NCBI GenBank assembly: GCA_965230925.1
Contig: OZ246403.1
Coordinates: 68,360 to 132,359, forward strand
Direction: 5' to 3'
Length of the DNA: 64,000 bases
Origin: an uncultured Candidatus Saccharibacteria bacterium
Lineage (GTDB): Bacteria; Patescibacteriota; Minisyncoccia; Phycocordibacterales; JACOZG01
The first letter of the stretch is position 1; every line of letters begins with the position of its first letter. The notes beneath the pieces are model-generated. The model saw only the letters and a program-made list of their open reading frames with translations, was not told the DNA's origin and searched no databases. Made by a program: the position numbers and the translations under genes. Of this stretch, positions 8,238 through 43,459 are shown one piece after another.

Positions 8238-8903
8238 ATGGCAGAAATTATCCCGTCAATTATTGGCAAGAATTTTACTGAAGTAGCGTCGAAGATGGCG
8301 CAAATTAATGATTTGGTTAAGTGGATTCATTTTGATGTGGTAGACGGCAAGTTTGCGAAGCCGGCTAGTTGGCCTGCCCGCCATAGCTACGCTTCAGGCG
8401 TTGCAGGCGGGGCAATAGACGACATAGCTACGATTGGTAGCAAAGTTAAGATCGAAGCGCACCTCATGATCGAAGCGCCGGAAGAGGTGTTGCCCTTGTG
8501 GCTCGAGGTCGCCGACCGCGTGATTGTGCATTACGAGGCGACTCATAACTTAACCGAGATTCTCGATGTTATTGGTCTGCGCGTTAACGAAGCCGGTGTG
8601 GCGCTCCTGATGAGCACCGATCTCGATGTTCTCACGCCGCATATTGAGAAAATTGATGTGGTCCAACTCATGACCATCGACGAAATTGGCGAGTATGGTC
8701 ATTCATTTAGTTCTCGTGCCCTGGAGAGAATCCGCGCCTTGCGATCAAAATTTCCCAACGTAAAAATCTCTGTTGACGGTGGTATTAATATAGAAACGGG
8801 TAAGCAGGCGATCGAAGCGGGAGCAGACCAACTCGTTGTCGGTTCAGCGATTTGGGAAGCATCCGATCTGGCGAAGGTGATTGAGGAGTTTAAGAAGTTG
8901 TAA
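8238..8903 (+). CDS. rpe: Ribulose-phosphate 3-epimerase
   Basis: HFDVVDG, HLM, DGGIN and AGAD..VVGSAI motifs, with an insertion in loop 1. Confidence 0.8.
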   Translation: MAEIIPSIIGKNFTEVASKMAQINDLVKWIHFDVVDGKFAKPASWPARHSYASGVAGGAIDDIATIGSKVKIEAHLMIEAPEEVLPLWLEVADRVIVHYEATHNLTEILDVIGLRVNEAGVALLMSTDLDVLTPHIEKIDVVQLMTIDEIGEYGHSFSSRALERIRALRSKFPNVKISVDGGINIETGKQAIEAGADQLVVGSAIWEASDLAKVIEEFKKL

Positions 8904-10433: not shown

Positions 10434-10677
10434 AAACCACATAATTATTAGTTGTATCTATTTAGCTGTCCTGTTAATGTTTTTCCTTCGCTCCACTCTT
10501 GAAAAAGCTGTCCCAGTTTCTATAATATTTTTGATCTTTTCTTTGGTTCTCATACTCAAAAAACGATTTCCTTATACAGCTTTTTCCTTAATAGTTTTTA
10601 TAATCTCTGTTTTACACGTAATTTTGTTCCCGCTACTTGCGGTGCTTATCATTTTTTCTGGTGGACCTGCGTTATAA
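10420..10677 (+). CDS. Small three-TM membrane protein, paralog 1 of 5
   Basis: 85 aa, three hydrophobic helices, and a KKRFPY loop between TM2 and TM3. AT-rich codons. It overlaps the tkt N-subunit stop by 14 nt. Confidence 0.5.
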   Translation: MSMSKNHIIISCIYLAVLLMFFLRSTLEKAVPVSIIFLIFSLVLILKKRFPYTAFSLIVFIISVLHVILFPLLAVLIIFSGGPAL

Positions 10678-10722
10678 TTGTACTTATAGTGATTAACTCA
10701 AACCAACAAGTGGCCACAATCG

Positions 10723-11064
10723 GTGCGGTTTATAAAAATCTACATGAGTAGCTCTAAACTAAAAAAGTTTTTTCACTTTACTAACACCAGAATGTCTTTG
10801 GCTATCTTGATTTTTGTTATCGGACTCATTTTGTTGTTAGGTTTATTGCCGCAAGCACTAAACGATCACGGCGGAGCAACAACCTCTTTGGGAGGCTTGT
10901 TTCTGGCTATTATTTTCTGGCCAGGAGCCGTTTTTATGAGTCTTGGTCAGGTTTTGTCCTTAGGTTTTATCTTTGCCCCTATAGCTTTTGTAGCCAGCGT
11001 TCTGTATTTTTACGCGTTGTCTTGTGTTTTCTGTAATCTTGTTTCTTATATAAAAAATAAATAA
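10723..11064 (+). CDS. Small three-TM membrane protein, paralog 2 of 5 (start uncertain; internal ATGs at 10744 and 10789)
   Basis: 113-aa ORF with three hydrophobic segments, in an AT-rich region. Confidence 0.45.
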   Translation: MRFIKIYMSSSKLKKFFHFTNTRMSLAILIFVIGLILLLGLLPQALNDHGGATTSLGGLFLAIIFWPGAVFMSLGQVLSLGFIFAPIAFVASVLYFYALSCVFCNLVSYIKNK

Positions 11065-11066
11065 TC

Positions 11067-11354
11067 ATGAGTAAGTTTCTTAAATTCGTCGAACTGTTAT
11101 CGGTTTCTTATTTTGCAATCTCAGCCCCAATACTCTTTTTGAGCTTGCGGCCAACGTTTTTCGATATTCTTTTTCCTAAGGTGATGTTGATTGGTGGTCC
11201 AATAAGTTTAATGATGACCCCCCCATTGATAATTTATTTTCAAAAACCACCCAAAATAAGGTGGCCCGCCGGATTTTCTCTAGCAACCGCTTCTATTATT
11301 AGTCTTTGCTTCTTGTTTTTCTTGGCGCTCCTTTGGTCGGTAGATTTAATTTAA
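11067..11354 (+). CDS. Small three-TM membrane protein, paralog 3 of 5
   Basis: 95 aa, MSKFLKF N-terminus, QKPPKIRWP loop between TM2 and TM3. Confidence 0.5.
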   Translation: MSKFLKFVELLSVSYFAISAPILFLSLRPTFFDILFPKVMLIGGPISLMMTPPLIIYFQKPPKIRWPAGFSLATASIISLCFLFFLALLWSVDLI

Positions 11355-11406
11355 AAAGTTAATCTCAGTCAGTAGTTTCAACTTCGTGATATCATTTTAA
11401 ACGAGC

Positions 11407-11697
11407 ATGAGTAAACTTAAGAAAATAAATTGGTGGATTAGTTTAGGTTTTCTTGTCGTGCTTGTTTCTTCGTTTCTGATTCCATATATTTTTCCTCTCG
11501 ATCTTTTGCCTTATCTGCTTGGCGTACTCCCATTCATTTGGATTCTATCTATTATTGATTTAATAAAACCACCAAGGTCTAAACTAGTAATTTTGGTAAT
11601 GATTTTAGCTGTAGTATTTTACCTTGTTCACGATACTCTATTTCATTGCGGCCTGTCCTGGGGAAAATTATTCGAAGAGGGTAAAATCTGCATTTAG
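11407..11697 (+). CDS. Small three-TM membrane protein, paralog 4 of 5
   Basis: 96 aa, MSKLKKI N-terminus, IKPPRSK loop between TM2 and TM3. Confidence 0.5.
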   Translation: MSKLKKINWWISLGFLVVLVSSFLIPYIFPLDLLPYLLGVLPFIWILSIIDLIKPPRSKLVILVMILAVVFYLVHDTLFHCGLSWGKLFEEGKICI

Positions 11698-11750
11698 AAG
11701 TTAACCCCAGGCGGTGAATTTTATTTTTTTGGTTGTGTTAAAATTTATAC

Positions 11751-12023
11751 ATGGTATTTATCGCGGTTTTATATTTGATTGGCTCTCTCGTAACCATCTT
11801 TAATTTTATTTCCGTACCACTTTTGGACCTTTCCTTTCCTAATGTAGTGGTAGCGCTAGTGGTTGGTTCGATTACTTTTACTGCTTCACCACTATTGCTC
11901 ATTGGAAGTCTAATCTCAATTTTCTACCTCAAGAAGAGGTCGCCATTATTTTTTGTTGTTATGGCAGTATCGCTTGTGATGTCGCTATTTTACATTTATT
12001 CTTTTTTGCGTCCGACATATTAA
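11751..12023 (+). CDS. Small three-TM membrane protein, paralog 5 of 5
   Basis: 90 aa, LKKRSP loop between TM2 and TM3. It ends 1 nt before the tkt C-subunit start. Confidence 0.5.
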   Translation: MVFIAVLYLIGSLVTIFNFISVPLLDLSFPNVVVALVVGSITFTASPLLLIGSLISIFYLKKRSPLFFVVMAVSLVMSLFYIYSFLRPTY

Positions 12024-12024
12024 A

Positions 12025-33058: not shown

Positions 33059-33131
33059 GGGCCCGTAGTTCATCTGGTAGAACGCCTCATTTGCAATGAG
33101 GAGGTAAGCGGTTCGAGTCCGCTCGGGTCCA
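33059..33131 (+). tRNA. tRNA-Ala (anticodon TGC)
   Basis: Manual cloverleaf: acceptor GGGCCCG/CGGGTCC with G3:U70, anticodon loop TTTGCAA, T-arm AGCGG-TTCGAGT-CCGCT. 73 nt, no encoded CCA. Confidence 0.8.
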
Positions 33132-33267
33132 CAATTCCTTATTTGCCAGGTTTTGGTTGGTGGGATATTCTGGGTCATGCTTCATAATCGTCAGATAAAG
33201 ACTTGGTCTAGTTTTGTTTGGAACACCTCTCCCGACCGGTAGGGTAAGGGTTGCTTTTTGTCTCTAG

Positions 33268-33322: not shown

Positions 33323-34030
33323 ATGATTACTCAACCAATCAAAACCCGTGTCTTCCAGGAAGGCGAAAGCTTGCTTTCATTTATCAAGAAATATCTCAAA
33401 AAGATCCCTGAGAAATCTGTTCTCGTCGTGACTTCTAAAATTGTTGCTCTGGCAGAGAGGCGAACAGCCATTGCCGAAAATGTTCAGAGCAAAGAAAAAC
33501 TCATTCGAGCCGAGAGTGAACTCGTAATACCCACCAAATATGCCTGGCTTACCATCAAGGATGGAATGGTTATGGCTTCCGCCGGCATTGATGAATCAAA
33601 TGCGAATGGTAAATTTATTCTTTTGCCAAAAGACAGCTTCAAAACCGCCCGCCTTCTGCGCCACAAATTGCGGGGGCATTACCGGCTCAAGCATCTTGGT
33701 GTTCTCATTACCGATAGTCGGACCTTGCCGCTCCGCGCTGGCGTGGCGGGTGTGGCCACGGGGTATGCCGGCTTCCGAGGTATTAAGGATTATCGGGGCT
33801 TGCCCGACATCTTTGGGAGAAAATTTAAATTCTCTCGCACCGATGTGGCCGACAGTCTCGCTACCGCCGCCGTCTTCGTGATGGGAGAGGGAAATGAACA
33901 ACAACCTTTGGCGATTATTAAGAAAGCTCCGGTTGAATTTTGCGACAAAGTTCATCGTCAAGAATTACACATCGATATTCAAGAAGACATGTACGGACCA
34001 CTCTTTGCCAAGTTACCCAAACCTTGCTAA
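33323..34030 (+). CDS. CofE-like (F420-0:gamma-glutamyl ligase family) protein
   Basis: VLVVTSKIVALAERR and downstream GVATGYAGF blocks resemble the CofE fold. 235 aa. Confidence 0.5.
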   Translation: MITQPIKTRVFQEGESLLSFIKKYLKKIPEKSVLVVTSKIVALAERRTAIAENVQSKEKLIRAESELVIPTKYAWLTIKDGMVMASAGIDESNANGKFILLPKDSFKTARLLRHKLRGHYRLKHLGVLITDSRTLPLRAGVAGVATGYAGFRGIKDYRGLPDIFGRKFKFSRTDVADSLATAAVFVMGEGNEQQPLAIIKKAPVEFCDKVHRQELHIDIQEDMYGPLFAKLPKPC

Positions 34031-34125
34031 CCTTTTACTGAACCGTGAGCGGGCACTGCACAGGGTGTGCGGAGGCAAAAGCTCACAATTTGTTCTCCTT
34101 ATTATATTTCGTGGAGGTTGGTATA

Positions 34126-34290
34126 GTGAACACGAAGCAAGGGACTCAGGAAAAAACCCAGGAAACGAGCGTGGCCGATCGAGTGCGGACGAGAATAGCC
34201 GCGCAAGGACGACAATCTGGACAGGACACTGACGCCGCACCAAGGCTACCCGAAAAAAATCACGAGGACAGCAAAAACTCAATCACCTAA
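34126..34290 (+). CDS. Putative small hydrophilic protein of 54 aa
   Basis: GGAGG 8 nt upstream of the GTG at 34126. Terminator directly downstream. GC-rich segment. Confidence 0.3.
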   Translation: MNTKQGTQEKTQETSVADRVRTRIAAQGRQSGQDTDAAPRLPEKNHEDSKNSIT

Positions 34291-34313
34291 AACACAGAAC
34301 CACTTAGGACCCC

Positions 34314-34368
34314 GGGCCGGCTACGTTGCTATGAACAACGAGCCGGCCCAAATTTTTTGACTTTTTTC
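34314..34368 (+). terminator. Rho-independent terminator
   Basis: 9-bp stem (gggccggct / agccggccc), followed by aaattttttgacttttttc. Confidence 0.7.
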
Positions 34369-34527
34369 TTTATCCACAGTTTTGCTTTTCAACTCTTGAC
34401 GATGAAAACGAGGGGAGTAAACTGAAAGCTGGCAAGATTCATTGTTCTTTGTTGAATAGTTCCTGGGGCACGGTTGCCGAGGAAAATTTCAGAGAACATG
34501 AGTCACACTGAAAAAGGAGTCATTCGT

Positions 34528-34704
34528 ATGTTGTTTACCATTCGTAACCACATGGCCGCACATGACCGTCGACAACGTGCTTTGGCTGGTCATCTTTCGG
34601 CGAATTTCAACGTGATGAACATGATCGACGACCCTGCTGCCACCACCGCCAACAGGAAGAACACCGCCGCTCCACCTGCGACGACGACCGTTCTCCGTGT
34701 TTAG
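34528..34704 (+). CDS. Putative small protein of 58 aa
   Basis: AAAGGAG 9 nt upstream of the ATG at 34528. GC-rich segment. Confidence 0.3.
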   Translation: MLFTIRNHMAAHDRRQRALAGHLSANFNVMNMIDDPAATTANRKNTAAPPATTTVLRV

Positions 34705-34881
34705 CGCGACGAGCAGCTGACCCGGATTTAGGAACTTTCACTCCACTGCGCTGGAGTGCCCGGGACCGAAAGGTCCCAAAAACAAGAAGCCCTGTAGCCT
34801 GCATGCCAAGTAGGAGCGGGGCTTTTTCATTTTTAAATTCCATTTTCAAACGTAATTTGCTAGGATTGAGGGCGCAAATAG

Positions 34882-34955
34882 GCACCCTTAGCTCAGCTGG
34901 TTAGAGCGTACGATTCACATTCGTAAGGCCCCAGGTTCGATTCCTGGAGGGTGCA
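34882..34955 (+). tRNA. tRNA-Val (anticodon CAC)
   Basis: Acceptor GCACCCT/AGGGTGC, anticodon loop TTCACAT, T-arm CCAGG-TTCGATT-CCTGG. 74 nt. Confidence 0.8.
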
Positions 34956-34979
34956 CCCGCTTCGAGGAGCGAGGCGAGC

Positions 34980-35054
34980 CGGGGTGTGGTGTAACGGTAA
35001 CATGTCCGTCTCGGGGACGGATGACTCCGGGTTCAAATCCCGGCACCCCGACCA
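34980..35054 (+). tRNA. tRNA-Pro (anticodon CGG), with encoded CCA
   Basis: Acceptor CGGGGTG/CACCCCG, anticodon loop CTCGGGG, T-arm CCGGG-TTCAAAT-CCCGG, 3' ACCA. Confidence 0.8.
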
Positions 35055-35120
35055 AGAGTTATGATATGATGGAGGTGTTCCCAAGGTCGCTTTATTAGCG
35101 TAATACCTGAAGGAAATATT

Positions 35121-35204
35121 ATGGATACTAAATGTGAGAGTTGCGGCCACATGCACAACGCTGGTGAGAAGTGCACAGAAAGTGGTTGCAGTTGCGAAGG
35201 TTAA
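35121..35204 (+). CDS. Putative 27-aa Cys-rich mini-protein (MDTKCESCGHMHNAGEKCTESGCSCEG)
   Basis: GAAGGAAAT RBS-like sequence 4 nt upstream. CxxC...C....GC.C pattern. Confidence 0.25.
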   Translation: MDTKCESCGHMHNAGEKCTESGCSCEG

Positions 35205-35277
35205 GCTAAGTTTGCCTCATTAGAATAGAGGCCAAAATTCGCTCTGGTTTACTTCCCGAGCGGATTTTGTTTTTTTG

Positions 35278-35323
35278 TGGACCCAGCGAGAATCGGACTC
35301 GCGCCTCGGCAATGCGAATGCCG
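35278..35323 (-). other. tRNA 3'-half-like fragment (anticodon arm with CGC loop, T-arm, 3' acceptor strand) with no 5' half
   Basis: Minus-strand CGGCA-TTCGCAT-TGCCG AGGC GCGAG-TCCGATT-CTCGC TGGGTCC A. No matching GGACCCA 5' acceptor strand or D-arm upstream. Confidence 0.4.
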
Positions 35324-35377
35324 CGTAACCCGCCCGCAACGCCTGAGCGCGTAGCGATGGCGGGCGGGTACCACCTG

Positions 35378-35450
35378 TGGACCGTGCCGGAATTGCACCG
35401 GCGACCTCTCGAATGCGAATCGAGTGTTCTACTAACTGAACTAACGGCCC
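35378..35450 (-). tRNA. tRNA-Ala (anticodon CGC)
   Basis: Minus strand: acceptor GGGCCGT/ACGGTCC with G3:U70, anticodon loop TTCGCAT, T-arm GCCGG-TGCAATT-CCGGC. 73 nt. Confidence 0.8.
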
Positions 35451-35505
35451 TCAATGGTTCTACACAATAGCAAAAGGTACTTGAAAAGGGAACTTGCTAT
35501 AATGG

Positions 35506-40408: not shown

Positions 40409-40482
40409 TGGTGGACCTACGGGGAGTCGAACCCCGACCTGTTCCATGCCATGGAACCGTTCTACCGCTATACTATAGGCCC
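40409..40482 (-). tRNA. tRNA-Ala (anticodon GGC), with encoded CCA
   Basis: Minus strand: acceptor GGGCCTA/TAGGTCC with G3:U70, anticodon loop ATGGCAT, T-arm CGGGG-TTCGACT-CCCCG. The D-stem has one mismatch. Confidence 0.7.
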
Positions 40483-42756: not shown

Positions 42757-42800
42757 CGACCTCTGCCGGAGAATTATACAGATTTATGACTTCTTGTCAA
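42757..42800 (-). promoter_or_regulatory. Consensus sigma70 promoter on the minus strand (TTGACA, 16-nt spacer, TATAAT), inside a 44-bp repeat (copy 1)
   Basis: Plus-strand tgtcaa at 42795-42800 and attata at 42773-42778. The segment cgacctctgccggagaattatacagatttatgacttcttgtcaa recurs at 43359-43402 with 2 mismatches. Confidence 0.65.
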
Positions 42801-43358: not shown

Positions 43359-43402
43359 CGCTACAACAGCGACCTCTGCCCGAGAATTATACAGATTTAT
43401 GA
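43359..43402 (-). promoter_or_regulatory. Consensus sigma70 promoter on the minus strand (TTGACA, 16-nt spacer, TATAAT), repeat copy 2
   Basis: Plus-strand tgtcaa at 43397-43402 and attata at 43375-43380, with the same surrounding 44-bp sequence as copy 1. Confidence 0.65.
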
Positions 43403-43459
43403 GTTCTTGTCAAGCAAATGATTTTTTCTTAGGTTCTGCTAAACTTCTGTAAATTAGAC

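Follow-up and report, generated by a model that had tools for sequence, protein, structure and literature searches.

Partial transfer RNA (tRNA) genes lying beside intact ones are a known product of integrating elements, and annotations often list such attL/attR fragments wrongly as tRNAs (van der Gulik et al., 2023, PMC9897764). We analyzed a locus of this general appearance in a 64,000-nt stretch (the window) of contig OZ246403.1, from an uncultured Candidatus Saccharibacteria bacterium of the Patescibacteria. Here an intact tRNA-Ala(CGC) gene, called tRNA #1, is followed on its 3' side by a GC-rich palindrome and a piece of a second tRNA-Ala(CGC). A preliminary description had read the piece as the possible scar of an integrative element. 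A scar with a displaced remnant is indeed present, but the footprint of an integrative element fits it poorly, given an 8-nt repeat, an intact gene that is not a hybrid and the lack of an integrase. We consider it probable that the locus is a tRNA pseudogene, produced by xenologous replacement of the resident gene together with insertion of a small palindromic repeat.

In common with attL/attR fragments, the window holds an apparently non-functional 3' portion next to an intact isoacceptor, with a poor-scoring tRNA-finder call, and the displaced fragment derives from the tRNA of the host itself. Unlike them, it has no element or integrase between or near the copies, and its repeat is 8 nt long rather than tens of identical nucleotides (an att core is typically at least 15 nt). 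Furthermore, its intact gene has a wholly different sequence instead of being a hybrid of a native 5' and an element 3' part, and its fragment starts in the D-loop and bears an extra palindromic insertion.

The palindrome recalls the Rickettsia palindromic elements (RPEs), interspersed palindromic repeats that occur both in intergenic and in protein-coding DNA (Blanc et al., 2007, PMC1779305). As with RPEs, the repeat of the window belongs to a reduced genome and is found both in an RNA gene and in a conserved enzyme gene, where it encodes an in-frame peptide that orthologs lack. Insertion of RPEs in frame and in RNA genes was reportedly described by Ogata and coworkers in 2000. The element studied here is shorter (36-40 nt, against 100-150 bp for RPEs), has two copies directly seen and a Patescibacteria host, and the RNA gene that it hit appears to be dead; a sequence relationship to RPEs is not expected. 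Repetitive extragenic palindromes and bacterial interspersed mosaic elements (REP/BIME), mobilized by REP-associated tyrosine transposases (RAYT; IS200/IS605-like TnpA), are by definition located outside genes, and a genome usually contains tens to hundreds of them. The element resembles them as a multi-copy, GC-rich, imperfect-to-perfect hairpin of ~20-40 nt. In contrast to REPs, its copies are intragenic, one in frame in rpe, the gene for ribulose-phosphate 3-epimerase, and one within a tRNA gene, and neither RAYT-like nor IS200/IS605 TnpA genes were found in ~82 kb of the 716-kb genome (from 8.6 kb left to 9 kb right of the window).

Interrupted tRNA genes are known from Patescibacteria as well: their introns lie in the anticodon loop (e.g., at 35/36), are ribozyme-sized and are self-splicing (PMC13011429, 2026). 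The window shares with these genes an interruption by extra sequence and its mishandling by standard tools, but the insert is 40 nt long, lies in the D-loop, has no Rfam intron match and restores no tRNA when removed. As to the joints, naturally transformable bacteria carry out homology-facilitated illegitimate recombination, with a homologous anchor on one side, a microhomology joint on the other and the loss of few resident bases. The GGGCC and CCA-C/TAG matches at the joints of the window would fit this pattern. The process is a candidate for the window, but it does not predict that both joints should fall at tRNA ends.

To identify the fragment, we compared it with the corresponding locus of relatives. 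The nearest one among species-representative genomes is L001, with a MOFRL protein 75% identical to that of the window; its contig begins within the tRNA gene, and the whole locus is present in L084, which is of the same species. From the intact tRNA rightwards, L084 and the window are collinear, at ~75% DNA identity. In both L001 and L084, the gene is complete and occupies the corresponding place, ~58-60 nt from the start of MOFRL and with a homologous 5' flank; between the window and L084, this flank matches in 41 of 62 aligned columns (~66%), including a common ACTTGCTATAAT. We found no relatives nearer than these, the next MOFRL homologs being at most 59% identical and lacking the tRNA context. 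The tRNA strand of L001, GGGCCCATAGTAAAGTGGTATTACGCGGCATTCGCATTGCCGAGGCGCGAGTCCG, shows the 5' part of an ordinary tRNA-Ala(CGC), and the final 35 nt of this sequence agree completely with the fragment in the window. The full sequence of this native type, GGGCCCATAGTAAAGTGGTA-TTACGCGGCATTCGCATTGCCGAGGCGCGAGTCCGATTCTCGCTGGGTCCA, is the clade standard for Patescibacteria tRNA-Ala(CGC), and the intact gene scores 62.4 bits with Rfam. A metagenome scan with its anticodon arm and T-stem returned 33 loci, and in all 33 the tRNA is complete and canonical and lacks the hairpin.

The fragment matches the intact gene of L084 at 54 of 54 positions. This agrees with the earlier view of a displaced tRNA-Ala(CGC) remnant, apparently non-functional, beside an intact copy, and the remnant is almost certainly what is left of the lineage's own tRNA-Ala(CGC) gene. 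It comprises the 3' strand of the D-stem, the anticodon arm (loop UUCGCAU), the variable loop, the T-arm, the 3' acceptor strand and A73 (35278-35328), plus three trailer bases. The anticodon arm, T-arm and 3' acceptor strand had been recognized before, within 35278-35323; the piece is longer than that (35275-35328), and a further part of it, GTGGTA, stands at 35369-35374. Global alignment to L084 shows that GTGGTA, an insert and TTACG represent the native AGTGGTA-TTACG, interrupted. The full layout thus reads GGGCC, the body of tRNA #1 with CAG, GTGGTA, the 40-nt insert and TTACG, and from TTACG to the 3' end the window equals the native gene.

Native positions 1-14, GGGCCCATAGTAAA, are missing from the remnant, with the possible exception of the CAG junction. 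On alignment, these three bases may represent native U8-A9-G10 with a single change or else a trailer that arrived with the incoming tRNA gene. Neither an acceptor stem nor a D-arm can be formed by the remnant, which is very probably non-functional. Its 60 nt carry no substitution, whereas the adjacent intergenic DNA matches at ~66%, which suggests that inactivation was recent relative to the split from L084.

The gene that now stands at the orthologous position, ~60 nt from the MOFRL gene start, is of a different type. tRNA #1 has a classical-type sequence with G3:U70 and A73, folds as a cloverleaf (z = -4.3) and carries the signature sequences GCCGGTGCAATTCCGGC and GTTCAGTTAGTAGAAC. With 67% identity to the native type, and with compensated differences in the anticodon, T and acceptor stems, it is not a recent duplicate of the native gene. 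When the fragment is compared with tRNA #1, as the preliminary description proposed for its 3' half, only the 8-nt GGTCCACA and the 7-nt anticodon loop are common, and the stems differ throughout. The nearest matches of tRNA #1 among the 69 tRNA-Ala genes of the fetched loci are 81-82% identical and belong to L039 (Kaiserbacteria). Its D-arm and T-arm sequences occur neither in the 95 loci searched nor in viral contigs, and a search of phages, plasmids and viral contigs for a source of tRNA #1 or of the palindrome gave generic tRNA similarity of 73-80% only and no exact match. We infer from the sequence comparisons that tRNA #1 is of foreign origin and replaced the 5' end of the resident gene.

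The two tRNA types also differ in their T-loops, which read UCCGAUU in native tRNA-Ala(CGC) and UGCAAUU in tRNA #1; the latter has in addition an A in place of G18 in the D-loop. Positions 18 and 55 of tRNA #1 may be a co-changed tertiary pair. Among 104 distinct tRNAs from 99 loci, T-loop positions 54-56 are UCC in 26 and UGC in 4, and the near-universal U55 is thus often missing.

The second lesion is the 40-nt palindrome between A21 and U22. Its stem has 10 bp, ACCCGCCCGC/GCGGGCGGGT (z = -3.1), and is one of only seven perfect hairpins of at least 10 bp in the 64 kb. The GC hairpin noted earlier between fragment and intact gene is real, but its stem is 10 and not 9 bp long and it is an insertion into the D-loop, not a spacer. 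All 35 intact orthologous or homologous tRNAs lack it. A second copy, of 39 nt, lies in frame in rpe. It was detected solely by short-word blastn (89% over 37 nt, E = 0.001); the count of the arm ACCCGCCCGC with one mismatch was at chance level, and a repeat-finder run missed this copy. For the two copies, nhmmer gave E = 1.5e-8 and 6e-8 and the folding energies are -24.5 and -20.0 kcal/mol.

The rpe copy encodes PARHSYASGVAG(G), a clean 12-aa insertion that is absent from all seven closest orthologs (77-46% identity), and homologs of Rpe in the PDB have a gap of 10-11 residues exactly at the insertion site. The palindrome is, in all likelihood, a repeat insertion element. Within Rpe, the 12-aa peptide directly follows the region of the conserved DG-F motif; apart from it the gene is intact, and five contigs carry it unchanged.

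Contig ends point to additional copies. In k=31 assemblies of three sequencing runs, one contig begins at 35339 and two end at 35357, in each case exactly 30 nt into the segment 35328-35368, whereas the same contigs continue unbroken through the diverged rpe copy. Such breaks are the de Bruijn signature of identical copies elsewhere with different flanks, so at least one further identical copy would be present in the genome or community. Neither viral contigs nor 17.6 kb of additional sequence from the same genome contained such a copy, and no clear target-site duplication is seen at either palindrome site. We lean toward regarding the element (36-41 nt) as an undescribed, recently active Patescibacteria family that lands in structured-RNA genes and, in frame, in essential enzymes, and that would thus parallel the RPEs in miniature.

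We infer the recombination mechanism and the order of the lesions from this layout, and give a slight preference to a xenologous replacement that used no integrase. Foreign DNA would have been taken up and then joined by homology-anchored or illegitimate recombination at the conserved tRNA ends, without a site-specific integrase. The lesions themselves are shown: the first 14 nt of the resident gene (5' acceptor strand, U8-A9 and D-stem 5' strand) have been exchanged for a whole classical-type tRNA-Ala(CGC) gene, and the 40-nt GC-rich palindrome, a separate small mobile repeat, has entered the D-loop between A21 and U22. The incoming gene is predicted to decode GCG, and the remnant would be at most a structured 3' trailer, co-transcribed with tRNA #1 up to the hairpin and U-run at ~35233-35277. 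Both joints fall in short stretches common to the two tRNAs, GGGCC on the 5' side and ...GGTCCA-CAG versus native GGCCCA-TAG on the 3' side, where the similarity arises because the GGGCCC acceptor is itself palindromic.

Several observations weigh against this explanation. The donor of tRNA #1 was not found, and this gene is called foreign because it is dissimilar and did not occur in a sample of limited size. Both joints lie nearly exactly at tRNA gene ends, which is odd for illegitimate recombination; a mechanism that recognizes tRNA genes could account for it. With a sole close relative, at 75% identity, the events are hard to order or date, and a remnant free of substitutions fits continued selection as well as a recent event. 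Just two copies of the palindrome were directly seen in the ~82 kb, others being deduced from contig ends. Finally, the tRNA call that ARAGORN makes at the remnant arises by chance about once in 20 times, which is not overwhelmingly random, and its pseudo-acceptor retains G3:U70.

The rival that survives best, though an unlikely one, is a classical integration scar, in which a tyrosine-integrase element with a tRNA-Ala(CGC) attP displaced the native 3' part and later lost its body and integrase by deletion. The native-type fragment does lie 3' of the intact gene, as a displaced attB-derived piece would, synteny with L084 ends exactly at the tRNA 3' end, and GGTCCACA terminates both copies. Moreover, integration-derived tRNA fragments are common and often mis-called as tRNAs (PMC9897764), and the att-like identical 45-nt 3' repeat in L048 indicates that such events do happen in the phylum. 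On the other hand, the intact gene is no hybrid: it diverges from the native type from position 6 on, and its own acceptor strands are perfectly complementary to each other. The direct repeat has 8 nt, compared with 44 nt in documented cases (PMC9897764), and the fragment begins in the D-loop rather than at a crossover in the anticodon loop or T-loop. When the palindrome is discounted, tRNA #1 and the fragment are 9 nt apart, and six of these nine are the native D-loop GTGGTA; no element DNA separates the copies.

The earlier statement that no integrase is present also holds over the wider region, with no integrase or recombinase Pfam match and no transposase in the ~82 kb, and viral contigs contain neither of the two tRNA types. 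To the left, the flank shows ancestral synteny and is not island DNA: the block UvrC-Ddl-tRNA-Ala(TGC)...MOFRL-PpsA-Eno is common to the window, L039 and L015, from which we conclude that the locus is ancestral. Taken together, the lack of an identical att core, the non-hybrid gene, the start in the D-loop and the absence of element DNA and of an integrase favor recombination at the tRNA ends over integration.

An old tandem is less likely still. It would consist of ancestral head-to-tail paralogs, the classical type followed by the clade type, the second of which was killed by a small deletion and the palindrome without any horizontal transfer. Tight Ala-Ala tandems are common in related loci (L077, L081, L090-L092), and the 81-82% similarity of tRNA #1 to classical Ala tRNAs of other Patescibacteria (L039) would suit such a history. 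However, L084 and L001 have the clade-type gene only, and the sequence 5' of this gene is homologous to that preceding tRNA #1 rather than to a spacer; the sister lineage must then have deleted the first gene precisely. In addition, the type of tRNA #1 is found in none of the 95 loci searched, and none of the 33 clade-type loci has a second CGC isoacceptor upstream in tandem.

It is highly improbable that the remnant is a working, non-canonical tRNA-Ala(CGC) for which the palindrome supplies the 5' acceptor strand and an enlarged D-arm. tRNAs were called with ARAGORN and confirmed with the Rfam tRNA model RF00005 (gathering threshold 29 bits); of the six ARAGORN calls in the window, Rfam confirms five, at 56-71 bits. 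The sixth is a complete 74-nt tRNA-Ala(CGC) at 35277-35350, the very kind of result that the preliminary description had said would overturn a scar. In its favor, the predicted acceptor pairs at six of seven positions, with G3:U70 and A73, the 3' 54 nt are perfectly conserved, and just 5% of shuffled sequences reach a call: with the native 3' 54 nt kept, a call was made in 25 of 500 cases when the upstream 48 nt were shuffled and in 15 of 500 with random upstream sequence. Yet Rfam gives 21.3 bits against 62-65 for real copies and leaves the D-arm unaligned. The candidate lacks base 26, has C2 facing C71 in a mismatch and forms a D-stem of 3 bp around a 12-nt loop, and the minimum free energy fold of the 73-nt piece is not a cloverleaf (z = 0.02). 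Its 5' 22 nt (35350-35329; acceptor strand and D-arm) are wholly insert DNA and belong to the repeat element that is also in rpe, and none of 35 relatives shows such a form. An alternative cloverleaf with GGUGGUACCC as 5' strand (RNAfold, 99-nt piece) has z = -1.7 and needs a bulge and a paired discriminator base. The full-tRNA call is an artefact, and the reading as a scar stands.

Nor is the gene an intron-bearing tRNA of the group I or bulge-helix-bulge kind. No intron family was found at E <= 10. When exactly the insert is deleted, no tRNA is restored and the ARAGORN call disappears, and intron-aware ARAGORN makes two calls on the intact sequence and one after deletion. The loss of the call, together with the missing 5' acceptor and D-stem strands, argues against an intron-bearing gene. 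Other structured RNAs were considered as well, and Rfam at E <= 10 returned sub-threshold noise (Plastid-ycf2, which is antisense tRNA, and ohsC at 30.7 bits with a cut-off of 50).

The chance of an assembly artefact, in which a false tandem arose from a chimeric join or from the collapse of strain variants, is negligible: the source is a metagenome-assembled genome (MAG) and all short-read contigs break inside the hairpin, but the assemblies of three runs give both junctions (fragment/palindrome and palindrome/tRNA #1) without mismatch and with a 19-nt overlap, and the break positions fit a repeat node, not a misjoin. The assembly at the locus is sound, its arrangement being matched with no mismatches by independent assemblies of three sequencing runs (SRR12822861, SRR12816581 and SRR12822863). 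A 100-kb Logan contig, SRR12822863_21787, starts ~2 nt inside the 3' end of tRNA-Ala(GGC) (~40411 by coordinate arithmetic), a second assembly break at a tRNA-Ala gene.

For annotation, the region 35277-35350 is best described as a pseudogene, since counting the call overstates the number of tRNA-Ala(CGC) genes. The locus would provide a base-resolution record of a streamlined Patescibacteria genome that swapped a tRNA gene for a foreign-type isoacceptor with no visible integrase, and of a tiny palindromic repeat able to insert in a tRNA gene and, in frame, in Rpe, an enzyme of central metabolism. Both tRNA gene remnants and RPE/REP-like palindromes are known kinds (PMC1779305), so the locus is not categorically new. 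It is a clean example that does not overturn current understanding and that is suggestive with regard to tRNA gene turnover in Patescibacteria. If the pattern is widespread, tRNA genes would act as hot spots at which DNA is horizontally replaced on a small scale, in a phylum believed to depend strongly on DNA uptake, and Patescibacteria tRNA gene trees would be unreliable markers.

A screen of all fetched loci gave further orphan tRNA pieces beside intact isoacceptors, most clearly in L070. There (226-430, - strand), a resident tRNA-Pro(CGG) is split in the anticodon loop, between A31 and U32, by a 112-nt insert; within it, inverted repeats of 14 nt (CCCCGCACCAAATTT / AAATTGGTGCGGGG) enclose a full tRNA-Pro(CGG) whose sequence differs. 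Two further changes mark the resident gene, 2 nt inserted into its anticodon and a GC palindrome of 19 nt in the anticodon stem. L070 thus appears to resemble the window in having a broken resident gene and an intact isoacceptor of different sequence. That the two represent a recurrent, integrase-free insertion of self-compensating tRNA cassettes, each of which brings an intact isoacceptor of foreign sequence into the resident gene that it breaks, and that this is distinct from sporadic illegitimate recombination, seems doubtful. A proposed link between the window element and the L070 hairpins via CCCGCC...GGCGGG was rejected: this motif is ~10-fold enriched in the loci, but it mostly marks plain terminators.

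Among the other cases, L076 (1045-1181) has a 28-nt 5' piece of tRNA-Ala and hairpins; downstream of them comes an intact tRNA-Ala bordered by a 13-nt inverted repeat. L086 (12524-12573) has a spare 5' half of tRNA-Pro(GGG) next to a nominally intact gene with a mismatched acceptor (46 bits). The 45-nt 3' repeat of L048 (1166-1210) is derived from tRNA-Glu, and L043 (10535-10621) has a 63-nt segment, with the 5' end of tRNA-Gly in it, duplicated in tandem threefold.

The features of the window are collected in Table 1.

Table 1. Coordinates of the features of the window that are discussed in the text.
Feature	Position	Strand	Basis or remark
Second palindrome copy, 39 nt	8373-8411	+	in frame in ribulose-phosphate 3-epimerase (rpe) open reading frame (ORF) 8238-8903
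tRNA-Ala(TGC)	33059-33132	+	ARAGORN
54-aa orphan ORF	34126-34290	+	GTG start, GGAGG ribosome-binding site
Strong terminator hairpin downstream of 54-aa ORF	34314-34349		fold
58-aa orphan ORF	34528-34704	+	gene call in public annotation (L099); singleton cluster P0121
Terminator-like hairpin after 58-aa ORF, among several hairpins there	34784-34827		fold
tRNA-Val(CAC), intact	34882-34957	+	ARAGORN; Rfam 70.7 bits
tRNA-Pro(CGG), intact	34980-35054	+	ARAGORN; Rfam 62.2 bits
27-aa Cys-rich putative ORF, MDTKCESCGHMHNAGEKCTESGCSCEG	35121-35204	+	AAGGA ribosome-binding site; terminator downstream
Terminator-like bidirectional hairpin	35233-35277	both	-18.4 kcal/mol, z = -3.75
Native tRNA-Ala(CGC) remnant	35275-35328	-	54/54 identical to intact tRNA of L084
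ARAGORN Ala-CGC call at remnant	35277-35350	-	Rfam 21.3 bits, below cut-off
GC-rich palindrome, 40 nt, CCCGCCCGCCATCGCTACGCGCTCAGGCGTTGCGGGCGGG on tRNA strand	35329-35368		between A21 and U22 of native tRNA
GTGGTA, leftover native D-loop bases	35369-35374	-	global alignment to L084
CAG junction	35375-35377	-	alignment to L084
tRNA-Ala(CGC), intact (tRNA #1)	35378-35450 (ARAGORN 35377-35450)	-	Rfam 64.8 bits
tRNA-Ala(GGC)	40409-40482	-	ARAGORN

The genes that flank the locus are housekeeping genes, and their relatives are all found in Patescibacteria MAGs. ARAGORN and Rfam agree with the preliminary description on three intact tRNAs, Val-CAC and Pro-CGG on the + strand and Ala-CGC on the - strand. 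Its mini-ORFs at 34126-34290, 34528-34704 and 35121-35204 are likewise present, with flanking hairpins and U-runs of z = -5.1, -3.6 and -3.75. By contrast, the segment 34030-34870, which had been called GC-rich, is unremarkable, with a GC content of 0.497; the mean of the window is 0.481, and among stretches of 840 nt the segment ranks at the 73rd percentile.

All three mini-ORFs (54, 58 and 27 aa) are preceded by plausible ribosome-binding sites, but none has a Pfam match, and tblastn detected no relatives in the 99 loci. In the protein collection they are singletons or absent, the latter in the case of the 27-aa Cys-rich ORF, and no protein-database homology search was run for this peptide. 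The bidirectional hairpin is followed by UUUUGUUUUUUU on the + strand, closing the side of the Val and Pro tRNAs and the Cys-rich ORF; on the - strand it lies directly 3' of the tRNA remnant.

A sister version of the spacer between the CofE-like gene and tRNA-Val was sought, and homologs of the CofE-like gene were found to be non-syntenic elsewhere. The CofE-like protein (F420_ligase family, 33323-34030) is ~77-84% identical to homologs across many Patescibacteria lineages, compared with 40-75% identity of the neighboring gene products to their best relatives. Its gene context varies everywhere, with DHFR nearby in two loci and Mur-type ligase genes in one, and this suggests unusually strong conservation or lateral spread of the CofE-like protein.

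Elsewhere in the window, a direct repeat of 44 nt (42757-42800 and 43370-43413, 95% identical, 613 nt apart) lies near two small uncharacterised ORFs (137 and 150 aa) on the opposite strand. The 1.6 kb at 10434-12024, between genes for the N- and C-terminal parts of transketolase, have no called gene and no Rfam match. Five ORFs of 85-113 aa follow one another there on the + strand; the region may represent either several small genes that were not called or one gene in decay.

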